From a virus: a stretch of DNA of 64,000 nucleotides. The notes under the pieces were generated by a model. That model was given only the letters and a program-made list of their open reading frames with translations, was not told where the DNA came from and searched no databases. Positions 6,001-61,498 of this stretch are shown in pieces; the stretch's first letter is position 1; each line of letters opens with the position of its first letter. The DNA is taken from positions 8,552 through 72,551 of the IMG/VR virus record IMGVR_UViG_3300020180_000017. One strand, 5' to 3'. The translations under genes were made by a program, and so were the position numbers.

Positions 6001-8867
6001 ATATAACCTAATGGATTTTGATTGTATGCAGGATCATTTAATACTGTTAGTAATACACCATTAACTTCTTGAGTATCTGTGTAAAAATCATAAAGTAAAA
6101 GACCATTATCCCGAATATTTTCCCATTCATTTTCTACTGTTTCTTGAGATAACTTTATTCCAATCACATCAAAAAAAGCAAGTAAGTCTTTTTCTTTTAC
6201 ATCTAATTTATTAATTAGAGGTATTTTTAATACCCTTTTAATAAATGTTTGTTCATTAACTTCTACGTATTTATTTGCTTTTGTATTTACTGTAAAATTA
6301 TCAATCCATTCTTGAAGTATTATTTTTTCAGAGGATGAAATTGCATCAATATATATAAATCTTGTAAATTCTTCTTCTCCTACTTTAATGCTTATTGTTT
6401 TAGTAACTTTAAGTGGTACTATTGGCCTACTGAATGTTCTGAACACTTCAGCGTATAAGCTAGCACTTTCCAATCCAAAATTAGCTTCACTAGGTACTCT
6501 AACTGCCCCTTGCATGTAGCTAGGCATTTTCATTAATCCTTTTAAATAGAATAGTTCTGGTATTTTTTTATAGGTTGCTTCGGAAAACAATTTTTCAAAA
6601 AATTTAGTTTCATTACTTTCTCCAGCCATGTGTAAAGCTACTCTGTTTAAAAGAGTAACAGAATCTACCATTTTATGAAATCCAAATTCATCCACTGTTT
6701 CAATAATACCGTCTTTTGTCCACGTAGCGTTAGGTAAAAGCCTAAATAAATTTCTTATGGGTTTTGAAGCAAATTGATAAACGCTTTTTTTATCTCCTCC
6801 TTCCTGTAAAGAATATAGATCAACTTCTTCCTCTTCTTCTTTTTCAATGTACTCTATAGAATTTATTAATGCATCAGCATCTTTAATATTCACATCTAAA
6901 TTACTGTTATTTAAATGAAATTTTATAAATGCATTGAAGTTTTTAAGTATTATTTCTACTTTATCATATTTTTCATCTTTTCCTGCATTTTTATTTTCTT
7001 TATCACTTTTTTTATAAGTGTTTAACAATCTATTAAAAGTTCTTTCCAGACTTTCATATATTTTTTTAGCTATAATTGGATCATTTAATCCATATATTGT
7101 TACGCTTTTAGCTTTTGCTTCTTTAGTACTAAGTAACTTTGATATGTGATAATCTGCTTCATCACTAAAATAATTTGCTTCCACTGCATTTAATACTTCT
7201 TTTCCTTTTTCGTTGAATATAGACATTCTATTTACGCCAGTAGCAGTAGTAATTACTTTTTTAGTGGAAAAATAACCATTATCTATTTTATTATATAGAT
7301 TTCTAATATTTTCTTTTCCAGAAAGAAATGATTGAATTTTAGCAAATAAATTTTTGAAAAAGTCCAAAATTTTACTTGGAAAATTTGCATTTTCTTTGTT
7401 CTTTTTAAAAGTTTCAAAACCAAATGCTAATTTTTCTTCTAACTTAACATCATTGCTTTGAGAATTATAGTACTCACTTTCCTGTTCTAATTCATTTAAA
7501 AATTTATCAGTGGATTGAGTAGTTCCTCTGCTTATATTAAATAGTTTAGAAGCTTCATCCAGTATGTTATTTTGTTCTTCCACTGGAATAAATAAATTAA
7601 ATGCAACGTGAAATGCTTCGTGGTAATAAGTAGATTTATTAGCATATTTTGAAATCTTAACTAACCCTTCTGCAAACATACCAATTGCTTTTTCATTACT
7701 TTTTTGTATAGTAATATACTCTTGCACTAACTCTATTGGTATTTGAGGAAAGTTTTTATTGAACCAAGCTTCTCCAAGTATTCTGGATTCTTCATTCACT
7801 ACAAAACTATTATTATCTGCTATTCTAAATTGAGCATCATCTTCATAGGAAGGTAGTATTTCATCAATAGCTTTTTCTTCAAAAGTTCTTCTATCTACAG
7901 CCATAGTATAGTTGTCATTCCTATCTTTACTGGCTGTTGCTTTAACATATTCATTTCCACTTTTAAATACTTGTATTGGCAATACTGTAATATCAGCATC
8001 AATATCTGTTCTTTGTTTTAATAGTGTTGCATATCCAGATTGCTGTATACTATCTGATTCTCTATATGAATCATAGTACGTTCCTAATACGTTTCTTCTA
8101 TTTTGTGTAGATGTTTTTAAATCTATTATAAATACTTTTCCTGTATTTTTATCAATAGCAAGAAGATCAATAGTTCCAGCTACGTTTTTACCATTAATAA
8201 CACCCCATAACGTAGGTATATCAGATATTAATTCTAAATTATTTGTAGTTTTTTTGATTTCACTAAAAATCATAAACAAATCGGATAGCATATCTCCTGT
8301 AAAAGGTAAAGATTCTCCTTTATCTATTTTGTTATATTTTTCTATTAAATCTTTTTCTGAAATTATATTATTTGAAATAAAATCTCTTAATAAACTATCA
8401 ATTATAGTTCCTCTATCAGCATCTCCTTTTTTAAAAACTCCAGTCTTTTTAATTAACGTACTAACTCTATCATATATTTTTCCAAAAGAATCAATATATT
8501 CATTTGAATTATTAGGATTTACTATTAAAATGTTTGAATTTAATATTTTTAATTTTTCTTTTACTTTTTCTATCTCAGCTACAATATTAATTGTAGTTGG
8601 TGAAAGGTATTTTTTATTTATTTCAGTAAAATCAGGTAATACTATAGGTGTAAAAGTATTTTGAGGAATACTCAAGCCTTTTTTTAATTTATTTAATTCT
8701 GCATTTAATCTTTTACTTTCTGCATTTACAAAAGTATTTTTAACTGTGGCTTCAGCTTCTTCAAGTGACATACCTTTACTCCTTAATGCCTCTGCATTTT
8801 TAAGTAATTGTTCTTTATTTTCTTTTGTTACGAAATCTATTTTTTCTAAACACTTTGATAATGGCAT
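1..8867 (-). CDS. Giant virion-packaged RNA polymerase polyprotein (crAss-like, phi14:2 gp66-type), over 2950 aa, 3' end outside the window
   Basis: Absent from the ORF track, presumably because no stop lies within the window. ATG at 8867 (MPLSKCLEKID). Spot checks in frame show TSKSGADFDIDKLF (DFDID at 3540-3554), YRIPTQ (~3660-3675), DGQAY (~4800-4815), zincin HEAFH (7608-7622), PD-(D/E)xK-like GTIDLL...IIDLKTS (~8110-8180) and SLOG-like YAGIGSRETP (~1240-1270). Confidence 0.92.
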   Translation of the reverse strand, partial: MPLSKCLEKIDFVTKENKEQLLKNAEALRSKGMSLEEAEATVKNTFVNAESKRLNAELNKLKKGLSIPQNTFTPIVLPDFTEINKKYLSPTTINIVAEIEKVKEKLKILNSNILIVNPNNSNEYIDSFGKIYDRVSTLIKKTGVFKKGDADRGTIIDSLLRDFISNNIISEKDLIEKYNKIDKGESLPFTGDMLSDLFMIFSEIKKTTNNLELISDIPTLWGVINGKNVAGTIDLLAIDKNTGKVFIIDLKTSTQNRRNVLGTYYDSYRESDSIQQSGYATLLKQRTDIDADITVLPIQVFKSGNEYVKATASKDRNDNYTMAVDRRTFEEKAIDEILPSYEDDAQFRIADNNSFVVNEESRILGEAWFNKNFPQIPIELVQEYITIQKSNEKAIGMFAEGLVKISKYANKSTYYHEAFHVAFNLFIPVEEQNNILDEASKLFNISRGTTQSTDKFLNELEQESEYYNSQSNDVKLEEKLAFGFETFKKNKENANFPSKILDFFKNLFAKIQSFLSGKENIRNLYNKIDNGYFSTKKVITTATGVNRMSIFNEKGKEVLNAVEANYFSDEADYHISKLLSTKEAKAKSVTIYGLNDPIIAKKIYESLERTFNRLLNTYKKSDKENKNAGKDEKYDKVEIILKNFNAFIKFHLNNSNLDVNIKDADALINSIEYIEKEEEEEVDLYSLQEGGDKKSVYQFASKPIRNLFRLLPNATWTKDGIIETVDEFGFHKMVDSVTLLNRVALHMAGESNETKFFEKLFSEATYKKIPELFYLKGLMKMPSYMQGAVRVPSEANFGLESASLYAEVFRTFSRPIVPLKVTKTISIKVGEEEFTRFIYIDAISSSEKIILQEWIDNFTVNTKANKYVEVNEQTFIKRVLKIPLINKLDVKEKDLLAFFDVIGIKLSQETVENEWENIRDNGLLLYDFYTDTQEVNGVLLTVLNDPAYNQNPLGYIYDKENPMENFVIRRVIKTLQKAEAKHTKIIQPIAYRNSEGELQSIISDANNLTKNAYEINNSENLDDLYERLPQLDNDLFRNSNIRKQLFDESGLRDTEFSIEIQNYNGINEEMTAKLDESDMLIMDVGNLTQNNIIQGPRTESKATYYALAIVNNKYPDSLPNGYLSADLENIVNFYEPHKAWMKKESSSNWGMFDFMTKEEHSDFNLGSFKIALERYVNVATSLFEKKIIDLFGDNSSFVKKIYIDERNETPRKIEDIDYRKIYRDFIIKNMVHDIEFNIMNSGNLAYYKDFTKRVARLASTGIPVNGLESTKQFLENSQIQTLAEIVNVNNIDVSKTSKTSVIPDVFSNENIVDNTVKNINKVNNVYGIKNSVDNNEKLKKERLSLNEANKADGQAYINIDAYRQFLLNTGGRWNKYMEATYEYEGLFYKKEILKRKLSEKETDRFLELEGLINKDDRYNLTILKYQLSGGIVNSERPAYDKMSLAPLLPSLIYRSKELLKVTDQSIKNGIAYVKHRSATKLQYTGDVNLLSDISKNITEVYSGDLKEQLKTDNDKDSLVIIGSQLRKLFFVTFFENGSANSEIESLYKNYKQALKNLIDINKIELFKELGIELEGNNIVVKNQAAFIEKLQKEADNLEMNVNVKDSLKVGMDGKLITPFEFSGITSVVNDLLFGLIDKTLRVQKVKGGQFTLLSNAYFDKLNFYDLEKINEKLYVKEADVRVGLVGEYKKLLNLQDEDNDNQPIGTLKRLNELLKDSKFIKKHKKSLTIIAYRIPTQEQNSMEILTIKEFLSPTVGWTIQAYDEITSKSGADFDIDKLFVLMPSLTRNGIYIDKEANKEIEKNKEELKSLLKSLKGNSAVRSSIYKSSGDLLSTMFGDIDIDSNAIYNEIEQQLIETFKELKSLDFSQKQMLENELNESMTSILKHPLQYERLTKPNSSSRIKDIARQNGIEMGFIKEEDLPVGGKLKLPQGMSILNYITGKLNMHKTMQGAQRALGVYAVGNVRTAILQQGIVEMNVKKVYVPLLTQKEFNTIVSNNKISLSGLYDVEGIAQLNINNTPLTNKNEINSELVTEAVDNPSNPTYFLLGIEYENLGVVQYLLTLNVPFDRIVDMLNTGIIRRYNLLKKSNPFIKFNDIAKSYGVTEEEEIKGLLNISNFRITPENLKQLKKDQFTDVRKTQLYKLMSLNILATYLHFNNKAQSFKDLTQNYSDDTKKITNTFQARAKRLMEKQIADLGVEKNGVPLFTADSINYLSKESVVSLFNNSELSIKISKAILPYFTDEETLNYFSEKVKSFVGTNSLKRTLAKRLFQEYMQFIVENMNVPFSSKGIIARSAFKGNAIQTFAAKLYFIKNNYPKSFERLTNTYSILNNIIIEKIKNEMPGEGFSRTDNYVVKLNLGGENIKSQENTYIKELNSLLSFNGFTGRPSNELKDKQSEFTKDVNDLIKSFTYLAFKQGGFSQNRFNITSLLPLSILIPEFELAFKNYQLLSSNKKLGLATNFYLEFYKFNPQFSVNRGKQDNVGLKDYYNGMAQAVINEKEVTSLNEVNPIKIDINKPEFNKLPFKSSIPTFTYAGIGSRETPANVLSQMTELAKELERRYTLNTGKTFPATESYDKKVYDERKKESEKLSKLHGNQVGLDEEGADRAFSAGTSKKNLFGVTGVIGNREMKVMEEIHPNPSALKSGGKKLMARNTNQIFGENLDTPVDFVLFYAEETSNPLRPKGGTGQAVEMARRKGIPTINMANPNWREELDKVLNTSNKVSQREYTPENITSLNEVNPKEIINRDNKYKFKENNKLFKNISYYSSGYSGKYANKYFIVGDTSLGQNSIGKNYPFLLIKINNNKRASVLEEQLLTVTGENNISIINNKNEIKKIIDDIRNNRILDDIHSDSDFGFDNMKDSNDGIVKIINNKIPNTIVLNTVNEVSNTQPKTELKVINRNPEIVNKLKEFESVTELYRYKNKLSEEQKVIYSQDFINREFEINNLNEVISPNE
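644..1363. repeat. 27-bp perfect direct repeat (644-670 and 1337-1363) flanking the SLOG-like domain
   Basis: TAGGATTAACTTCATTTAAAGAAGTTA occurs twice, 693 bp apart and in frame; it encodes TSLNEVNP. Confidence 0.9.
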
Positions 8868-32134: not shown

Positions 32135-32153
32135 TTTATTTATTTAAGATTAG

Positions 32154-32224
32154 TAGAGCTATTAGGATTCGAACCTAAACTAATCGCTTAGAAGGCGATT
32201 TTGCATCCATTACAACATAGCTCT
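32154..32224 (-). tRNA. tRNA-Arg(UCU), no encoded CCA
   Basis: AGAGCTA/TAGCTCT acceptor stem, ATCGC-CTTCTAA-GCGAT anticodon arm, TTAGG-TTCGAAT-CCTAA T arm; weak D stem. Confidence 0.85.
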
Positions 32225-32263: not shown

Positions 32264-32431
32264 TTACATAGCCAAACCGTTACGATATTGATTACTCATT
32301 ATTTTAAATAATGCTGTTTTTTTAAATTTATTTATTGTACTTTCTTTTATACCTATTCTCATTGAGATTCTTGCACTACTGCATTTAATGTAGGAAGGGT
32401 TTTCTTGCAAAAATTTTACTGTTGTTTTCAT
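32264..32431 (-). CDS. Small basic hypothetical protein (55 aa, MKTTVKFLQENPSY...)
   Basis: Manually translated ORF below the track cutoff, filling the gap in the operon. Confidence 0.6.
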   Translation of the reverse strand: MKTTVKFLQENPSYIKCSSARISMRIGIKESTINKFKKTALFKIMSNQYRNGLAM

Positions 32432-32435
32432 TTTT

Positions 32436-32756
32436 TTAATTTAAAAGGTTATTGATATTTTCTGTTGCTTGCTTTAACTTATTTAAAGTTATTTGAAATT
32501 TAATTAATTGATTATCTAACTTATTTATAACTGTGGAGGGTGAAGATTCAATTACTGGATTGTCTTTTTCTTTTTCTCCAGGAAACTCACTTAAACAGTT
32601 TTGAATAATTATGGTTGTACCAAGTACATCGTTTAATTGATCTACTTGATTTTCTAACACTCTACATATCTCAACAAACGCTGGAGATTGTTTATAAGGA
32701 ACTTCACCTAAAGTGCATGAAGGATCGTTTTGGAGATAGCAATTATCTATTTTCAT
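32436..32756 (-). CDS. Hypothetical coiled-coil protein
   Basis: 106-aa ORF in operon context. Confidence 0.6.
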   Translation of the reverse strand: MKIDNCYLQNDPSCTLGEVPYKQSPAFVEICRVLENQVDQLNDVLGTTIIIQNCLSEFPGEKEKDNPVIESSPSTVINKLDNQLIKFQITLNKLKQATENINNLLN

Positions 32757-32765
32757 AATTTTGTT

Positions 32766-32996
32766 TTAAAATGTTTTTGTTTTTACCTTAATGAAGTTTG
32801 GTACTTTTTGTTTTAAATTTGTTATTGGGTTTACTTCTATTATAAAACCATCTTGGAACTGGTCATGTCCTTTTAAATGTGCTTTGAGGTGCTTTTGCTC
32901 TCTCCTTTGTTCTTTTTTGGAGTCAAAGTCTTTTATCTTACCTCCAAAAGATCTTGTTTCAGAGGGTTTTCGATTTTTGTTTTGGTGAGTATTCAT
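32766..32996 (-). CDS. Small basic hypothetical protein
   Basis: Lys/Arg-rich ORF; likely start MNTHQ. Confidence 0.6.
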   Translation of the reverse strand: MNTHQNKNRKPSETRSFGGKIKDFDSKKEQRREQKHLKAHLKGHDQFQDGFIIEVNPITNLKQKVPNFIKVKTKTF

Positions 32997-33048
32997 ATTC
33001 TTATTTTGTTTACACAAATGTACAACTAATTTATTTAACATCGCCTAA

Positions 33049-34278
33049 TTAAAAACAAACATTAAAAAAAGTTAGGAGTTCTTCTTTTTGTAAATTAGAA
33101 ATATTAATATTTTTGTTCTTATTTAGAAATATCATCCATTCAGATACTACTTTATTTACTTTCCAACTTTCAAAGTAATTTACAATAGTATTTTTAAATT
33201 GCTCTAAGTCAAGTTCTACTGCTTCTAACTCATTATACTCTAACCATTTAAATATTCTATTTTTAAATCTTTCACATCCTTTATACCCGTCATCTTTCCA
33301 TTTTCCACCTTCAAAATAATGATTAATAAACATCAAATACATTCTTAATGTTTGAGGATCGTAATCTATGGGGTTTACTGTATTATTAAGTGACTTACTC
33401 ATTTTATTACCATCCTCTCCTAATATCATCCCTTGATGTATTACTTTAAGGAATGGTTCATCAAAATCTATGTAACCTATATCAAATAAAAATTTAGTTA
33501 TAAACCTAGCATATATGAGATGCATACAAGCATGTTCATTTCCTCCAACATACAAGTCAACAGGTCTGTTTTTATCATATTCAATAGTATAAAAAGAACT
33601 ATCAACAAATGTATCTAAAGTATCTTCTTCTCCATTTACAGGTATTGAACACCCCCATTTTCTTTGCCTACTTACACACCAATCAGTTAAGTTATGTAGC
33701 CAATGTATTTGTTGTTTTTTAGTTTTTTCTGGGTAATCTACTTTGTCAAGGTCATTAATCAATCTTTCTTTGTAATCTGTAATTTTAAAAAACCACTGAT
33801 TTAATTCTTTTTTAATTACTTCAGTATTGCATCTTTCACATTTTTTATCTTTTACTTGTTCTTTAGCTAAAACAGTTTCACATGAAATGCAATAATCTTG
33901 TTCTCTATTAGCCTTATAAGCTAATCCATGATCTAATAGTTTATTGAATAACCACTGAGTTCTTTCTTGATATTCTTTAGAATGTGTTGAAAGTTTATAT
34001 TCAAAAGAAGTATTCATTCTTTCCATTTCTTTTGAAAAAGCCACTATATTTTCTTCAGTTATTTCTTTTGGATCTCTATTTACTTTTTTAGCGTAATTTT
34101 CTGTTGGAAGACCAAAAGCGTCAAAACCAAAAGGTTGAAATATTTCATAGCCTAAATACTTTTGTATTTTACAATAACTATCTACAATAGAATAATTATA
34201 GTAATGTCCTACGTGAAGATTTGCTCCACTTGGGTAAGGAAACATTACAGTTACATACTTATTTTCTTTTTTTATCAT
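33049..34278 (-). CDS. leuS: Minimal leucyl-tRNA synthetase (class Ia) lacking editing and C-terminal domains
   Basis: MFPYPSG-x2-LHVGH (HIGH), FDAFGLP, CxxC...CxxC ZN1, DWCVSRQRKWG, DTLDTFVDSS, EHACMHLIYARF, KMSKS. Confidence 0.92.
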   Translation of the reverse strand: MIKKENKYVTVMFPYPSGANLHVGHYYNYSIVDSYCKIQKYLGYEIFQPFGFDAFGLPTENYAKKVNRDPKEITEENIVAFSKEMERMNTSFEYKLSTHSKEYQERTQWLFNKLLDHGLAYKANREQDYCISCETVLAKEQVKDKKCERCNTEVIKKELNQWFFKITDYKERLINDLDKVDYPEKTKKQQIHWLHNLTDWCVSRQRKWGCSIPVNGEEDTLDTFVDSSFYTIEYDKNRPVDLYVGGNEHACMHLIYARFITKFLFDIGYIDFDEPFLKVIHQGMILGEDGNKMSKSLNNTVNPIDYDPQTLRMYLMFINHYFEGGKWKDDGYKGCERFKNRIFKWLEYNELEAVELDLEQFKNTIVNYFESWKVNKVVSEWMIFLNKNKNINISNLQKEELLTFFNVCF

Positions 34279-34289
34279 AATTTATTTTG

Positions 34290-34600
34290 TTGTTTACATA
34301 ACTCCGTTTATCCCTGCAAGTGTTTTCACTTTGGGTTAAAGATTATTAGAGTAATAACATAATCTTTAAGTTAACCTATAAACTCCCACACCCCTGTTTC
34401 GACTTTATTAATTCTTGGGAATTAAGTCTGTGTTTTATGTGGAGGAATACGCTTTTTCCCAAGAATTACTTGCAGGGCATTGTTGTGACGGTAACACAGA
34501 GCAACTATTTTACGTATCCTATACCAGTAAGGCCAAGTTTCCACTCCTTACTGAGTTTATAATAACTATCTTTTATTGACTCTAGGACTAAAAGATGGAA
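34290..34600 (-). ncRNA. Structured leader / ncRNA upstream of leuS
   Basis: Multiple complementary pairs: CCCTGCAAGT/ACTTGCAGGG, AATTCTTGGGAA/TTCCCAAGAATT, TCTGTGTT/AACACAGA, CAGTAAGG/CCTTACTG, ATCTTTTA/TAAAAGAT. Confidence 0.55.
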
Positions 34601-34611
34601 AAAACCCGAAT

Positions 34612-34642
34612 AAAAAAAACCCCTTGTATTTCTACAAAGGGC
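34612..34642 (-). terminator. Intrinsic terminator within the leuS upstream region
   Basis: GCCCTTTGTAGAAATACAAGGGG followed by T8 on the minus strand. Confidence 0.75.
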
Positions 34643-34760
34643 TAATTTAGACAGGAGATTGAGAATACAGTTGTTACACTGTAAAGATATGAAATTTATT
34701 TTAATTACTAATTATATTTTTGCACTAACTCCTGTCTAAGAAGCATTTTGCTTTACATAA

Positions 34761-34792
34761 CAAATGTATACTTTTAATTAATATCCACCAAA
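34761..34792 (-). promoter_or_regulatory. Bacteroidota primary-sigma promoter
   Basis: TTTG-N20-TACATTTG matches the -33/-7 consensus TTTG...TAnnTTTG. Confidence 0.7.
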
Positions 34793-34810
34793 TTTATTTG
34801 TATTATTTTA

Positions 34811-34888
34811 CTACTTAATAATTCCTCCTAAAGTTGTAGTAATCCATAAAGGAAGGTGAGTTGAGCTTAATGTTATAGTGTATTTCAT
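34811..34888 (-). CDS. Putative leaderless 25-aa peptide MKYTITLSSTHLPLWITTTLGGIIK
   Basis: ATG lies 4 nt downstream of a TATATTTG -7 box (34893-34900). Confidence 0.35.
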   Translation of the reverse strand: MKYTITLSSTHLPLWITTTLGGIIK

Positions 34889-34904
34889 ACTGCAAATATA
34901 CAAC

Positions 34905-34937
34905 AAAAGAGGGGCCAGTATAGAAATACTACCCCTG
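34905..34937 (-). terminator. Intrinsic terminator ending the fibre-gene operon
   Basis: AGGGGTAGTAT-TTCT-ATACTGGCCCCT followed by CTTTT. Confidence 0.65.
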
Positions 34938-34958
34938 AAAAACAAAACAAAACAAATT

Positions 34959-36122
34959 TTAAGGATAATTTATGTAAAAACTCTTAATATCCGACTTAGG
35001 TACGCCAACACAAGGATAAGATTCTACCCTAATAGTATGATAACCTTTATTTAAATTTAATAGAGAGACACTTGCAGCCACTTGAGGTTGTGCAGGTGAC
35101 GTAATCAAGATATTATCTAAATACACTCTAAATGTAGTTTCTACACTTGTCCACGAAGTTGTTGCAACGTCATTAACTATTACTGGTGTATTAACTACTA
35201 TAGAAGAGCATCCAGAAGTTACTGAAAGAGACGTAGTTGTAGAGCCAAAAGTTACAGAAGCTACTGACCCACCATTGTTACAATAAGCTTGTATTTTAAG
35301 CCAGTAAGGTGTTGATGGGGATAATTCTGAGAATGTAGCAAAAGGTACAACAAGGTTAGCTTGAGTTGATCCTGGAACTAGTACAGTTAATCCTGCATCA
35401 GTGTAGAGAGAAACAGTCCAAGTAGTGTTATTACTACCAGAAACCCAAGTATAAAATAATGAAGTAGATGTAATACCTATTGCAGTTACACCTGTTATTT
35501 CACTGCAATTAGATAAAGAAGCTACACAATTTAATACAGATGTGCAAAATCCAGGAAGAGCAACTAAGTAGTTTAAAGCACATTGCCAGTCTATTGTTGC
35601 TTGTATTTTTTCGTTAAAACCTGTATTTACTTTTGAAAAAGTAATGCATTGAGTGCTTAACAATTTATCAAATAAATAGCTTGTAGTTGTATCTGTTGCA
35701 GATATTTTAACTTTTTCATCAGGTGGAGTTGATACAGCTCCAGTTGCAGTCACTTGTACTTTTTCAATTCCTGAAACTGTTATAGGACTTAATAAAATAC
35801 CAGTACCAGCAGTTAACATTGTTGAAAGATACTCTGGTGTTGCATCAGAATTGTCTCTAAGTACTTTTCCTTTATAAATGTTATAATCACATTTCCAAGA
35901 TTCTAATTTTCCAACAAGATCATACAGAGTTTCATTTGTTTCAAAATCAAGACAAGTAAAAACTATATTAGTGCCATTTACACTTTTTTCTTTTAACTGT
36001 ATACAGCCAAATGGAAGTTCATTGTCACATCCCATTATAGAATAGTCAGGAAGATTACAAGTGCATAGATTATCACATTGATCACATCCACATTTATTGC
36101 AAGGATTTGTATTAACACACAT
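34959..36122 (-). CDS. Cys-rich fibre/structural protein with FN3-like domains
   Basis: Repeated KV..D.T..YL fibre segments; FN3-like LSPSTPYWLKIQAYC. Confidence 0.6.
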   Translation of the reverse strand: MCVNTNPCNKCGCDQCDNLCTCNLPDYSIMGCDNELPFGCIQLKEKSVNGTNIVFTCLDFETNETLYDLVGKLESWKCDYNIYKGKVLRDNSDATPEYLSTMLTAGTGILLSPITVSGIEKVQVTATGAVSTPPDEKVKISATDTTTSYLFDKLLSTQCITFSKVNTGFNEKIQATIDWQCALNYLVALPGFCTSVLNCVASLSNCSEITGVTAIGITSTSLFYTWVSGSNNTTWTVSLYTDAGLTVLVPGSTQANLVVPFATFSELSPSTPYWLKIQAYCNNGGSVASVTFGSTTTSLSVTSGCSSIVVNTPVIVNDVATTSWTSVETTFRVYLDNILITSPAQPQVAASVSLLNLNKGYHTIRVESYPCVGVPKSDIKSFYINYP

Positions 36123-43161: not shown

Positions 43162-43926
43162 TTAAGCAGTAGGGTTGACCCCTACTACGTATGTAAATTT
43201 AAAATTTCCTGCTGATTTCCTATTCCCTTTTAACACTCTGCTAATGTGTGAAATTTTAATTTCCAAACTATTTGCAGCTTCTGTAAGTGATGAAAACTCT
43301 TTTAAAATATTTCCATTTAAATCTAATTGAAGTATGGATTTTTTAGAAGTGCTCGCAGAAGATAATTTTAATTTATCTTCTTTATTTAACGTAGTTCCTT
43401 TGTTGTGAACTGTGTGTGTTTTAAAATATTCTTTTTTATTACTGGATATTTTTTCTTTTGTCTCTTCAGATTGTATTTTACCTTTGTGAAACTCAGACAT
43501 TTTTTGTTTATACTCTTCACTTCTTTTCTTTCCAGTATTAGCATTTACAATTTTAGCTACGTGATCTTTTGAAAGTTTCTTACCTGTGTGAGCAACGGAC
43601 ATTTTAAGTTTGGATTCTTCACTATGCTTTCCACCTTTACCTCCTTTTTGAAGATTTAATAGTAAGATACCTGACTCTCTATACTGTTCAATAAAAAATA
43701 TTTCGTAATTATCTAAAACTTCTTGAGAAACATCTTTTGGTAATTCTTGAACTATCTCCATTCTATGATTTGTAGAGCCATATTTCATAAAAGAGTTAAA
43801 TAAAAGAACTTGGTACTTATGTCTGCTTGGAGAACATGTATATCTATACAACCTGTTTTCAAGATCCCAACTCTGCCCAATATAAACTTTTTCACTTGGA
43901 CTTGTGATTTTGTAGATTCCTACCAT
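43162..43926 (-). mobile_element. Free-standing GIY-YIG homing endonuclease with NUMOD3 repeats and NUMOD1 HTH
   Basis: VGIYKIT...KVYIGQS; HSEESKLKMS, RSEEYKQKMS, QSEETKEKIS repeats; ILQLDLNGNILKEFSSLTEAA. Confidence 0.92.
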
Positions 43927-59278: not shown

Positions 59279-59569
59279 ATGAAAGAATTAAAAAGTTTAT
59301 ACAATGGAATTATAAATGACTACTCAATTAGACGTTATTCCATGGGATGGCAAGATATTGTTACTAAATTAGAAAAAAGATATAAGAACATACCTAAAAC
59401 AAATAAGCAATTTGAAAATGAATTACTTTTTAAAGCGTTGTCTGTGGCTAAAGGTTCTTTGTTAATAGATATTGAAAATTTTTCAAAAGAGTTGTCAATT
59501 AATAAGGAAACATTACGAGAAAAGTCAAATCGTGGAACTCAAAAAAGTCCGTTTGGAATAGGTTCTTAA
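59279..59569 (+). CDS. Hypothetical protein
   Basis: 96-aa ORF. Confidence 0.6.
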   Translation: MKELKSLYNGIINDYSIRRYSMGWQDIVTKLEKRYKNIPKTNKQFENELLFKALSVAKGSLLIDIENFSKELSINKETLREKSNRGTQKSPFGIGS

Positions 59570-59585
59570 ATAAATTTACACAAAT

Positions 59586-59684
59586 AGCGATGCTAGGTGG
59601 ATACAGGCTCATTACTTGTATAGGTTGTAAGAAGTAATAATGTAAAATTCTTATGACATGGGAGTTCGAGTCTCTCCGTCGCTA
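59586..59684 (+). ncRNA. tRNA-like RNA without D stem, with long extra arm
   Basis: AGCGATG/CGTCGCT acceptor + A, GGGAG-TTCGAGT-CTCTC T arm, 7-bp hairpin with CTCATTA loop, 10-bp extra arm. Confidence 0.7.
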
Positions 59685-59715
59685 CAAATAAATTAATAAT
59701 CTAAAACAAAACAAT

Positions 59716-60078
59716 ATGACACTAAAAGAATTTAAAGACTACATTAAGTCTTTTCCAAAAAACGCTGTGTTTAAATGTGGCATTTCTGAACCTTTCTCTT
59801 GGAGAGGTAGTTATGACGAAGTTGCTTTTTCCGTGGTAGAAAGCAGTATGGGTAAATCTGTAATACTAAAAAGAATTAATAAAGCATATACCGAAACTTT
59901 TTTTGGTTACAAAGGCGGTGCATATGAATATTCAGATCACACAACTGTAAATTTTGAAGAAGAAGGGAGCAGGAATTATTCAAATGGCAGATACACTGCT
60001 GAAATGATTTCTCAATTAGAAAATACAGAGCAATTTCTTAGTCAAGAAGAAAGACTTGTTAAATTAGCTTTTTGTTAA
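59716..60078 (+). CDS. Phage hypothetical protein (SWRGSY...FFGYKGG motif)
   Basis: 120-aa ORF with a motif pattern recalled from other phages. Confidence 0.65.
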   Translation: MTLKEFKDYIKSFPKNAVFKCGISEPFSWRGSYDEVAFSVVESSMGKSVILKRINKAYTETFFGYKGGAYEYSDHTTVNFEEEGSRNYSNGRYTAEMISQLENTEQFLSQEERLVKLAFC

Positions 60079-60084
60079 AACATT

Positions 60085-60393
60085 AAAATTAGTCTTGCTT
60101 ATAATAAACAGTGAGTGCTGATATGCCAAAGTGATTTAGTTCATGAGTAATAAACTTCAGTTGAAAATGAAACACTAACAGCTTGGATACTCCAAGTGCA
60201 TTACGAAGCTAATATAAAGGTTTAAACCTTTGCACAGGTTACGTGCTAAAGAGAGTAACAGAAATGAGTGTAATCACAATCTGCTAAAAGATGTTGTTTA
60301 TTATAAGGTATAAAATTTACTAGGCTCTTGTAACGAGTAAGTCTATCGTTAAATCCCTTATATGTAGCTTTAGCAACTACCAAGATTAATTTT
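60085..60393 (+). ncRNA. Large multibranch structured ncRNA
   Basis: 13-bp closing stem AAAATTAGTCTTG/CAAGATTAATTTT, 15-bp stem CTTATAATAAACAGT/GTTGTTTATTATAAG, and many inner hairpins. Confidence 0.6.
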
Positions 60394-60402
60394 TAAACTT
60401 AT

Positions 60403-60664
60403 AAACTATTGTGTAGAATGTAGGCTTGGAAGTAGCCATCATTTAAAGAGTTACGAGTTCAACAGAATTATTTATACTTCTATATAAATGATTACTGAAA
60501 TACGGTTCCTGAATTGACAGGGTGGAAACACAATCTCTATATTTGAGCAAGTTAGGTGGAACTATGGTTTTTGAAAACTTTAAAGATAGAAGTCAATAAA
60601 GAAAAATGTATAGGAGAAACAACCGTCAGAGTATTTGGTGTAACAACACACTTCACAATAGTTT
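60403..60664 (+). ncRNA. Mimic of the 23S rRNA L11-binding domain (GTPase-associated centre, H43/H44) with 186-nt insertion
   Basis: AGAATGTAGGCTTGGAAGTAGCCATCATTTAAAGAGT...GTGTAACAACACACT versus E. coli 23S 1054-1105; closed by AAACTATTGTG/CACAATAGTTT. Confidence 0.85.
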
Positions 60665-60700
60665 TATTATTTACTAATCAAAATGTATTTTTAGATTCAA

Positions 60701-60823
60701 GAGTTAAGTGGCGGAATTGGTATACGCAGTGGTATGTTAAATGTGGAAATAGACATAATTCCTAATCCTTTATAAGGACTATCTGCTTGTCTTTTACTGT
60801 AGGTTCGACTCCTACTTTAGCTC
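60701..60823 (+). ncRNA. tRNA-like RNA with Leu-type D arm and expanded, branched anticodon region
   Basis: AGTTAAG/TTTAGCT acceptor, TGGCGGAATTGGTATACGC D arm, GTAGG-TTCGACT-CCTAC T arm. Confidence 0.7.
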
Positions 60824-60856
60824 CAAATAAAAATAACAATTTAACAAACAATAATT

Positions 60857-61498
60857 ATGACAACTAAAACATTAAATGTAGTAATGATTGCTACTAATGA
60901 ATCAACTAATATAGTATTAAATACTATTAATAATAGATTGTTATTAGATAATGATAAAACATTAGTTGAAAGAATATTACCTATTCATGGAAAACATCAA
61001 CATTTATATTTTACAAGTGAGGATGAAATTCAAGATTTGGATAATTTTGGTATAACTATTCCTTTGTTGTTTATTAATGATAACAATTCAATAAAAGTAA
61101 TTACTTATTCAAATAAAAGAATTGGGGACTATTACGAAATCGAAGCTACAACAAATAAATCATTACAAGTTAATTGTGACGGTAAATGTGCTAAATATGA
61201 AGGTATTTGTTCATTTCCTCAAATACCACAATCATTCATAGAAGCTTATATTAAAGCTTATAACGAAGGTAATCCTATTTTAACAGTTGATGTTGAAACA
61301 GAAGAATATGATACTATAGTTAAAGATTTTAAAGATATTAGAATCAAAACTAATTCAGCTAATGAAGTTATTATTGTTGAACCTAAACTTTATACTAAAG
61401 GAGATTTAGTTAATTTTGGCAATGATGTATATTCTAAATTTACAAAAAACATATCAATGAATGATTTTGTCAACAATTGGATTGAAAACAATCTTTAA
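60857..61498 (+). CDS. Phage hypothetical protein
   Basis: 213 aa; QHLYFTSEDEI...PQIPQSFIEAY. Confidence 0.65.
   Translation: MTTKTLNVVMIATNESTNIVLNTINNRLLLDNDKTLVERILPIHGKHQHLYFTSEDEIQDLDNFGITIPLLFINDNNSIKVITYSNKRIGDYYEIEATTNKSLQVNCDGKCAKYEGICSFPQIPQSFIEAYIKAYNEGNPILTVDVETEEYDTIVKDFKDIRIKTNSANEVIIVEPKLYTKGDLVNFGNDVYSKFTKNISMNDFVNNWIENNL

Follow-up and report, generated by a model that had tools for sequence, protein, structure and literature searches.

The window analyzed here, 64,000 nucleotides (nt) of viral DNA (positions 8,552 to 72,551 of IMG/VR virus record IMGVR_UViG_3300020180_000017), carries on its minus strand a gene for a protein of 409 amino acids (aa) that is probably a working, non-editing minimal leucyl-tRNA synthetase (LeuRS) of a distant crAss-like phage. 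According to our model, the enzyme would activate leucine to leucyl adenylate (Leu-AMP) and would then move the leucine to tRNA-Leu, either that of the host or a phage-encoded one where present, without post-transfer proofreading, as does the LeuRS of Mycoplasma mobile. With the elbow-binding C-terminal domain gone, the tRNA would be gripped only by the catalytic body, the zinc knuckle ZN1, and a compact helical domain. The likely benefit would be an extra or host-independent supply of Leu-tRNA during infection; the small size of the enzyme would fit a packaging-limited genome, and a short lytic cycle may tolerate some mischarging.

Judged by its sequence matches, the 409-aa protein is clearly a bacterial-type LeuRS by family. 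Its best profile is TIGR00396 (leuS_bact; E = 3.6e-99), with valyl-tRNA synthetase (ValRS) as the runner-up (2.1e-39), and archaeal profiles reach only 1e-16 to 1e-21. The best match in the PDB is the CP1-less LeuRS of M. mobile (3ziu; 3.4e-71), followed by the LeuRS of Escherichia coli, Thermus thermophilus, Agrobacterium, and Neisseria. The TIGR00396 score (333.1 bits) lies under the curated cut-off (548.4 bits) because about half of the profile is unmatched: of its 843 positions, only 5 to 221, 410 to 429, and 484 to 744 are covered. The closest cellular sequences are clostridial/Bacillota LeuRS of about 803 to 816 aa, with 52 to 54% identity over the N-terminal half (370 to 386 bits).

The elements of the catalytic core are retained. 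The HIGH and KMSKS signatures and ZN1, read as intact in the original prediction, are present and invariant in 42 of 42 aligned family members (KMSKS at residues 292 to 296; positions of the others in Table 1). The ZN1 cysteines align with the CxxC...CxxC of clostridial LeuRS, the GEDG-KMSKS segment aligns gap-free to GKDG-KMSKS of M. mobile LeuRS (family consensus, GxDG), and D199, W200, S203, R204, Q205, and R206 are invariant both in the 42-member alignment and in the alignment of phage and clostridial LeuRS. Further residues invariant in 42 of 42 members, and also common to clostridial LeuRS, are D53, E248, H249, H253, T223, F224, S227, and Y230. The anatomy of the protein was derived from a seven-sequence alignment (the window protein, four phage relatives, and two LeuRS of clostridial type), with the LeuRS of Clostridium kluyveri (P0124, 811 aa) as the reference. 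In all seven sequences, the residues of MFPYPSG, GxDxFGLP, DTFxDSSxY, and EHAxxHLxYxRF are identical, and they are invariant in the 42-member alignment as well. These conserved synthetic-site residues presumably line the leucine/adenylate pocket, as in the structure of the T. thermophilus enzyme. The peptides quoted in the original prediction lie at residues 189 to 206 (QQIHWL-HNLTDWCVSRQR), 208 to 224 (WGCSIPV-NGEEDTLDTF), and 282 to 296 (QGMILGEDGNKMSKS).

Measured against C. kluyveri LeuRS, the phage protein is missing roughly 26 residues at the N terminus and the entire CP1 editing domain (about 190 aa). Also absent are a ZN2/CP2 insert of 52 aa with a second CxxC...CxxC zinc module, a 15-aa loop, some 25 residues from within the helical domain, and, at the C-terminal end, about 85 residues that span the last helix of the anticodon-binding domain together with the C-terminal tRNA-binding domain. 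CP1 had been described as cleanly excised, and indeed WL is joined to HN with no linker; a Pfam search of the 409-aa protein for CP1 (PF13603) gave no match. The reduction of CP2/ZN2 was recognized correctly, as was the loss of the C-terminal domain, since the profile match ends at position 744 of 843 and the last ~85 aa of P0124 remain unmatched. The leucine-specific insertion is absent, as stated, but its absence is not a phage deletion. Clostridial LeuRS likewise lack this domain and have GPDG where the window protein has GEDG, and because these closest cellular LeuRS share the GxDG linker, the absence was inherited. Bacillus subtilis and M. mobile are also named as having a LeuRS without the leucine-specific domain in passages of PMC3643597. 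The clostridial enzymes thus share with the phage protein ZN1, the GxDG hinge, and the missing leucine-specific domain; they differ from it in possessing CP1 (PF13603), the ZN2 insert, a complete anticodon-binding domain (PF08264), and a C-terminal domain.

An AlphaFold2 model built with 42 family members is compact and confident (pLDDT 89.0; pTM 0.88). Its best Foldseek match is again 3ziu (TMq 0.93), so that the comparison with CP1-less mycoplasma LeuRS drawn in the original prediction holds for sequence and for structure. By VIA, the model superposes on T. thermophilus LeuRS (1obc) with Z = 35.6 and a root mean square deviation of 2.2 over 406 residues (model residues 3 to 409 on chain residues 28 to 783), on M. 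mobile LeuRS with Z = 35.4 and a deviation of 1.9 over 408 residues (chain residues 33 to 544 of 637), and on E. coli LeuRS along chain residues 29 to 765. The catalytic core is, in the model, folded like the synthetic core of bacterial LeuRS. Residues 331 to 409 form four helices whose superposition on the helical domain of LeuRS extends as far as residue 783 of the T. thermophilus enzyme. The full-length superposition on LeuRS structures thus shows a helical domain that is retained in compact form and a complete absence of the C-terminal domain. The helical domain had been called shortened; it has indeed lost its last helix and the internal residues given above, but topologically it is still there in the model.

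The protein belongs to a large family. A homologue search over 5.8 billion proteins gave 3,691 matches, other class I synthetases included, of which the best 120, with no identity under 59%, were examined. These comprise 109 clusters of 396 to 450 aa (59 to 100% identical to the window protein), 8 of 514 to 533 aa, and 3 shorter fragments. With 396 aa as the minimum length, 117 members remain. Of these, 112 have an exact KMSK[ST] (the remaining five have KMAKS, KMSKR, KMGKS, and, twice, RMSKT) and 116 have CxxC...CxxC; three apparent misses of HxGH are N-terminal extensions beyond the 40-residue search window. The ratio of nonsynonymous to synonymous substitution rates (dN/dS) is 0.08 to 0.25 wherever dS could be computed (Nei-Gojobori, 13 coding sequences), these ratios being rough, since dS is at least 0.95 and mostly saturated. 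The mean majority fraction is 0.74 to 0.87 in the catalytic segments versus 0.54 in the helical tail. One member, P0121 (813 aa), carries a 398-aa intein with a Hint domain and a LAGLIDADG endonuclease inside KMSKS (KMSK, then Cys...His-Asn, then Ser). Insertion of inteins within indispensable catalytic motifs is typical.

That the gene might be a decaying, functionless fragment of a captured LeuRS gene is hardly credible in view of these data. The profile score under the curated cut-off would fit such a fragment, as would a 51,908-bp contig (L017/L073) on which the gene is split into frames of 280 and 191 aa. However, at least 109 intact clusters have the same length and the same precise junctions, dN/dS is low within the limits given, the predicted structure is compact, and an intein is maintained inside KMSKS. 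On the sequence evidence, decay appears effectively refuted, and the argument of the original prediction for selection rather than decay is upheld by the homologue and dN/dS analyses that it had proposed. The split frame on L017/L073 may itself reflect a frameshift, a sequencing error, or a pseudogene.

The family appears to be essentially phage-borne. A profile scan of viral contigs gave 93 relatives, 80 of which were kept. Identity to the window protein reaches 50% or more in 56 of them, and clustering of these at a nucleotide identity of 95% leaves 48 distinct genes, on contigs of 13 to 608 kb. Among the 77 best loci from 185,579 species genomes, the compact form occurs in one, a 2.9-kb scaffold binned with a Bacteroidota metagenome-assembled genome (MAG); the other best loci encode canonical LeuRS, those of Clostridia and Ignavibacteria being closest. 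Because the cellular loci are nearly all canonical, the phage gene is no recent copy of a Bacteroidota host gene. Separately, a 147-kb contig from a Bacillota MAG (L142) has a LeuRS-like match of 1,266 nt for query residues 8 to 344 at 35% identity, which may be a LeuRS without CP1 on DNA binned as cellular. Where family members are named in public sources, they are labelled 'leucyl-tRNA synthetase'. A literature search in a partial library brought up no description of a half-size phage LeuRS without CP1 and C-terminal domain; passages of a paper on huge phages mention phage synthetases in general terms only, and its supplementary tables may list such genes (PMC7162821). This large family of mini-LeuRS phage genes is therefore, apparently, undescribed.

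In large phages, the mini-LeuRS gene lies inside tRNA arrays, and it is here that a connection with tRNA-Leu emerges. tRNA genes occur within 10 kb at 22 of the 48 distinct loci, and tRNA-Leu at 14 of those 22. Leu accounts for 59 of the 213 tRNAs flanking mini-LeuRS, compared to 7 of 116 in four control phages without a LeuRS lacking the C-terminal domain (5/45, 0/40, 1/8, and 1/23; Fisher P = 1e-6), where the flanking loci are not phylogenetically independent and the control counts cover the fetched loci rather than every tRNA of the control genomes. The proportion of Leu is 21 of 42 within 1 kb of the gene versus 38 of 171 farther out (Fisher P = 8e-4). Furthermore, an independent subfamily of 511 to 542 aa repeats the enrichment (7/7 at L081, 6/16 at L078, and 2/5 at L084), and none of the 15 tRNAs flanking a reduced ValRS gene is a tRNA-Leu.

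Many of the neighboring tRNAs are themselves unusual. Of 74 Leu-anticodon tRNAs beside phage LeuRS genes without the C-terminal domain, 28 are only 73 to 78 nt long and have no long variable arm; they are spread over 12 of 17 loci (L038, L039, L042, L047, L048, L051, L052, L058, L065, L078, L081, and L084), and A73 is present in nearly all of them. Among the 99 tRNAs of these arrays whose anticodons are not for Leu, Ser, or Tyr, 19 reach 80 nt or more. According to passages of PMC6614811, almost all bacterial tRNA-Leu are type II, the type I tRNA-Leu of Streptomyces is not charged by E. coli LeuRS, and the C-terminal domain of E. coli LeuRS contacts nucleotides of the variable arm. Taken together, the type II rule and this contact make the co-evolution of a tail-less enzyme with an arm-less tRNA attractive: the enzyme would have shed every tRNA-gripping appendage, many adjacent tRNA-Leu would have lost the long variable arm, and LeuRS and clustered phage tRNA-Leu would constitute an autonomous leucylation module that diverged from the host system by co-evolution. 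We nevertheless regard such a module as doubtful. A specific partnership with arm-less tRNA-Leu is not established by the comparison of 28 of 74 with 1 of 7 in the four control phages (P = 0.41). Among the control tRNA-Leu, none of five is short where the LeuRS keeps its tail, the single one in G016, a control phage carrying a CP1-containing LeuRS fragment, is short (77 nt), and one has 80 nt.

For two of the losses seen in the window protein, those of CP1 and of the leucine-specific domain, there is an experimental precedent, because M. mobile LeuRS charges tRNA without either (passages of PMC3643597). As reported there, the glycines of its GKDG hinge are essential: the hinge restored 55% activity to an E. 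coli LeuRS deprived of the leucine-specific domain, compared to 0.55% with AAAA. The M. mobile enzyme (3ZIU, 637 aa), described in the same source as the 'minimal' natural LeuRS, resembles the phage protein in that it has no CP1 and that four residues, G-x-D-G, serve as a hinge where the leucine-specific domain would otherwise be. In contrast to the phage protein, it retains a nonapeptide CP1 linker, CP2/ZN2, the full anticodon-binding domain, and the C-terminal domain; it is the sole, essential LeuRS of its cell, whereas the phage protein is about 230 aa shorter and stands alongside a host LeuRS. Even more strongly stripped cores, the designed LeuRS urzymes of about 130 aa, retain activation and some acylation, as described in parts of PMC9026127 and PMC11229368. 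Urzymes are laboratory constructs, far smaller and of low activity, whereas the phage protein is natural and has ZN1, a full Rossmann fold, and a helical domain.

Several observations weigh against a charging enzyme. The main objection is the missing tail: T. thermophilus and E. coli LeuRS no longer charged tRNA once their C-terminal domain had been deleted, unlike human cytoplasmic LeuRS (passages of PMC3561953). M. mobile LeuRS keeps this domain, our model reaching only residues 33 to 544 of its 637. The LeuRS-I of Sulfolobaceae makes Leu-AMP and binds tRNA with no aminoacylation (parts of PMC9437257), and we would not take intact activation motifs by themselves as proof of charging. A Pfam search of the 409-aa protein for the anticodon-binding domain (PF08264) gave no match, and the helical domain is the least conserved part of mini-LeuRS (0.54). 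As for the tRNA genes, the one nearest to mini-LeuRS is a tRNA-Leu at 9 of 22 loci versus 6.8 expected from each locus's own tRNA mix (P = 0.14, not significant), and 26 of the 48 distinct loci, the closest relatives of the window included, have no tRNA within 10 kb. The tRNAs called in a 93%-complete relative of 91 kb are Asn, Phe, and Ala only, with no tRNA-Leu, and the window's own record has no standard tRNA-Leu. The linkage is true for large phages only; in phages without a tRNA-Leu of their own, mini-LeuRS would therefore need the tRNA-Leu of the host.

A different function is thus conceivable, albeit unlikely in our estimation: the protein may be a LeuRS-derived paralogue that retains the binding of leucine and ATP and the formation of Leu-AMP but has no charging activity, acting instead as a tRNA-Leu binder or regulator or passing leucine to another acceptor, after the models of truncated or duplicated synthetases (LeuRS-I, GluQRS, MshC, and amino acid:carrier-protein ligases). 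The effect of losing the C-terminal domain in two bacterial LeuRS and the precedent of LeuRS-I argue for it, as does the location of the gene in the window's clade, away from tRNA genes and in a self-contained cassette among structural genes. A relative fused to a methyltransferase of the PCMT type (P0122) hints at further chemistry. On the other hand, ZN1, DW..SRQR, and the GxDG hinge are conserved, features of tRNA transfer that go beyond the needs of activation; tRNA-Leu is enriched near the gene in large phages and near a second subfamily without the C-terminal domain; and no conserved partner or acceptor gene adjoins mini-LeuRS. The duplicated LeuRS of archaea, LeuRS-I of Sulfolobaceae and LeuRS2 of haloarchaea, also show little or no charging, impaired or absent editing, and altered C-terminal parts (as far as covered in PMC9437257). 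These are archaeal-type, full-length, cellular proteins with a disrupted CP1 and a divergent C-terminal domain (acidic in LeuRS-I; same source). The phage protein is unlike LeuRS-I in being bacterial-type and in having CP1 and the C-terminal domain absent rather than altered.

A charging enzyme could also obtain the missing tRNA grip from a partner in trans, the candidates being a phage protein, another mini-LeuRS molecule, or a host protein such as a Trbp111/Arc1p-like factor or even host LeuRS. Aquifex LeuRS consists of two separately encoded subunits, and the C-terminal domain of its beta-subunit binds tRNA (passages of PMC3561953); moreover, a very basic open reading frame (ORF) of 91 aa directly follows the LeuRS gene of the window. 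We nonetheless consider dependence on such a partner quite improbable. An all-against-all BLASTP comparison of the ORFs within 4 kb of the gene at 13 distinct loci revealed no shared protein family beyond LeuRS itself, from which we conclude that mini-LeuRS moves by itself. Comparison with the downstream ORF at L001, the closest viral-contig locus, showed no similarity to the 91-aa ORF, and neither the latter nor the two small ORFs behind it (106 and 55 aa) matched any PHROG. A detached C-terminal piece was found with the TIGR00396 profile neither in the phage's own record nor in five of five nearly complete huge-phage records (97 to 100%), although a diverged piece could escape the profile; in all five, the mini form is the sole LeuRS-like gene, the other matches being weaker, class I synthetase-like ORFs. 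A non-editing LeuRS that charges tRNA-Leu with its own reduced body remains the reading that we prefer.

Phage LeuRS form a graded series in which the family of the window, at about 410 to 430 aa, and L076 (428 aa) are the extreme of reduction. L079, L082, and L083 (615 to 645 aa) lack CP1, are matched by TIGR00396 up to 842 or 843, and hence keep the C-terminal domain, like M. mobile LeuRS; L078, L080, L081, and L084 (511 to 542 aa) also lack CP1, their match ends at about 754, and they have the full helical domain and no C-terminal domain. Both groups are CP1-less like the window protein, yet only 32 to 37% identical to it, and in contrast to it they exceed the TIGR00396 cut-off and retain the ZN2 region and a full-length helical domain. 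The shorter group shares with it the absence of the C-terminal domain and is located beside tRNA-Leu genes. Within the window's family, the eight members of 514 to 533 aa (P0029, P0042, P0062, P0066, P0073, P0081, P0082, and P0089) have a CP1 remnant of about 115 aa with two editing motifs, the threonine-rich TTKPET and GVP.DD.RD. They are scattered on a quick maximum-likelihood tree, so that at least five gains or losses are needed, and their monophyly is rejected (approximately unbiased test, p = 0.0026, the group having been named after the tree was seen). Reduction is not confined to LeuRS: L085:9917-11446 encodes a ValRS of 509 aa (471 bits versus a ValRS cut-off of 704), whose match pattern suggests loss of the CP1 editing domain, on the same 508-kb phage record as the mini-LeuRS L040. 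Given the graded LeuRS series and the reduced ValRS, the shedding of editing domains seems to be a recurrent habit of phages. The fusion protein P0122 (777 aa, 13 member sequences, 44-kb contig) contains a mini-LeuRS part with 52% identity over 99% coverage and, at residues 547 to 680, a C-terminal PCMT-like S-adenosylmethionine-dependent methyltransferase domain, the two being separated by residues ~410 to 546.

Few multi-domain synthetases have been studied as thoroughly as LeuRS, whose C-terminal domain is considered indispensable to charging in bacteria. A large family without this domain, CP1, and ZN2 that is under strong purifying selection and linked to tRNA-Leu genes would mean either that a core of 409 aa suffices for leucylation or that a synthetase core has found a new use in infection. 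In the first case, what tRNA recognition minimally requires would have to be redefined, work on urzymes and minimal synthetases could draw on a naturally occurring test case, and synthetic biology would obtain a compact scaffold for building orthogonal pairs. If the co-evolved module were real, the phage enzyme would rank as the smallest LeuRS in nature; charging would be proved possible without CP1, ZN2, or the C-terminal domain; and a natural orthogonal synthetase/tRNA pair would be available ready-made. The apparently repeated loss of editing domains from class Ia synthetases of phages bears on the translational fidelity that a virus needs.

The window itself is phage DNA. It contains genes for a portal protein (phrog_6547; 1.4e-38), a large terminase (phrog_6681; 1.1e-43), and virion proteins, as well as giant ORFs of 2,955 and 2,100 aa, and up to about 56 kb it is coded nearly throughout on the minus strand. 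The terminase shares 22 to 24% identity with its counterparts in crAss-like phages of Bacteroides and Flavobacterium; the record comprises 72,551 bp, with a CheckV completeness of 52%. Among the structural genes, a homing endonuclease ORF of the GIY-YIG type lies at 43162-43926 on the minus strand (phrog_314; 5.7e-32). An alternative genetic code or a longer ORF was ruled out for the LeuRS gene, which ends in TAA, contains no in-frame TGA, and uses TGG for Trp; an alternative code is also contradicted by the neighboring ORFs, which are long and contiguous under code 11.

The LeuRS gene and the three small ORFs downstream of it, which are probable operon mates, form a cassette bounded by two terminator-like hairpins (Table 1). 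Upstream of the gene lies an ORF-free gap of 680 nt (34279-34958) with a G+C content above that of its surroundings; the promoter-like site and the hairpin within it could mark a short transcript. A search of positions 34200-35000 for a T-box or other leader RNA gave a best Rfam match with E = 0.09, all matches being far below the gathering scores. Just past the cassette lies a gene for tRNA-Arg(UCU), and AGA is the dominant Arg codon of the phage (323 of 438). Leu makes up 7.7% of the codons in the 24 long ORFs of the window, and TTA, the commonest Leu codon (552 uses), 53% of the Leu codons; the commonest Ile codon is ATA (537 uses).

Table 1. Position of the putative minimal LeuRS gene, its sequence elements, and nearby features (window coordinates)
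Feature	Coordinates	Strand	Remarks
Gene for the 409-aa minimal LeuRS (putative)	33049..34278	-	ATG to TAA; stop TAA at 33049-33051
HVGH (class I 'HIGH' signature), residues 22-25	34204..34215	-	H22, G24, and H25 invariant in 42/42 members
ZN1 zinc knuckle, Cys130/133/147/150	33829..33891	-	four Cys invariant in 42-member alignment
CP1 junction, W193-L194 to H195-N196	33691..33702	-	TIGR00396 match skips from 221 to 410
DWCVSRQR, class Ia CP core, residues 199-206	33661..33684	-	from sequence alignments
ZN2/CP2 junction, P213-V214 to N215-G216	33631..33642	-	TIGR00396 match skips from 429 to 484
GEDG linker, then N-KMSKS, residues 287-296	33391..33420	-	K292, M293, S294, and K295 invariant
Compact helical (anticodon-binding-type) domain, residues 331-409	33052..33288	-	helices of the model; ends at the start of the missing last helix/C-terminal domain
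Three small ORFs following the LeuRS gene directly (91, 106, and 55 aa)	32264..33041	-	
Terminator-like hairpin closing the LeuRS cassette	32250-32232	-	8 pairs, then T run
tRNA-Arg(UCU) just past the cassette	32153..32224	-	ARAGORN; Rfam 61.4 bits
Promoter-like site upstream of the LeuRS gene	34738-34711	-	11/12 matches
Strong terminator-like hairpin upstream of the LeuRS gene	34643-34618	-	~70 nt past the promoter-like site
tRNA-like gene	59586-59685	+	perfect 7-bp acceptor stem, perfect T-arm, A73, long extra arm, 16-nt anticodon loop
tRNA-like gene, 123 nt	60702-60824	+	Rfam tRNA 29.6 bits (reaches threshold), tRNA-Leu-type D-arm, discriminator C

Far from the LeuRS gene, the window has two tRNA-like genes on the plus strand, and no link between either RNA and mini-LeuRS was found. 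The charging of non-canonical RNAs and the synthesis of Ap4A, both suggested in the original prediction, are conjectural. The first (59586-59685) is read by ARAGORN in intron mode as a tRNA-Leu(aag) with an 11-nt insert and is not called by Rfam. The second (60702-60824) has about 53 nt where the tRNA model expects 5, and ARAGORN reads it as Ile(tat) at 90 nt or as Ile(aat) with a 28-nt insert; a canonical-looking anticodon loop with UAU (Ile) is possible at 60764-60780. BLAST of both genes against five related records, mostly fragments, gave no match, and the z scores of their minimum free energy folds (-2.36 and +0.58) are uninformative. Directly upstream of the second gene is an ORF-free stretch of about 620 nt (60079-60700), for which an Rfam scan of 59400-61000 gave no match. 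Another pair of tRNA-like elements, neither of which is called by ARAGORN at default settings, lies about 400 nt apart in G010 (L113, G010:114081-114169; L116, G010:114544-114599). The two share an identical 3' half consisting of T-arm, acceptor strand, and ACA, and L113 has a hairpin inserted in the D-loop region.

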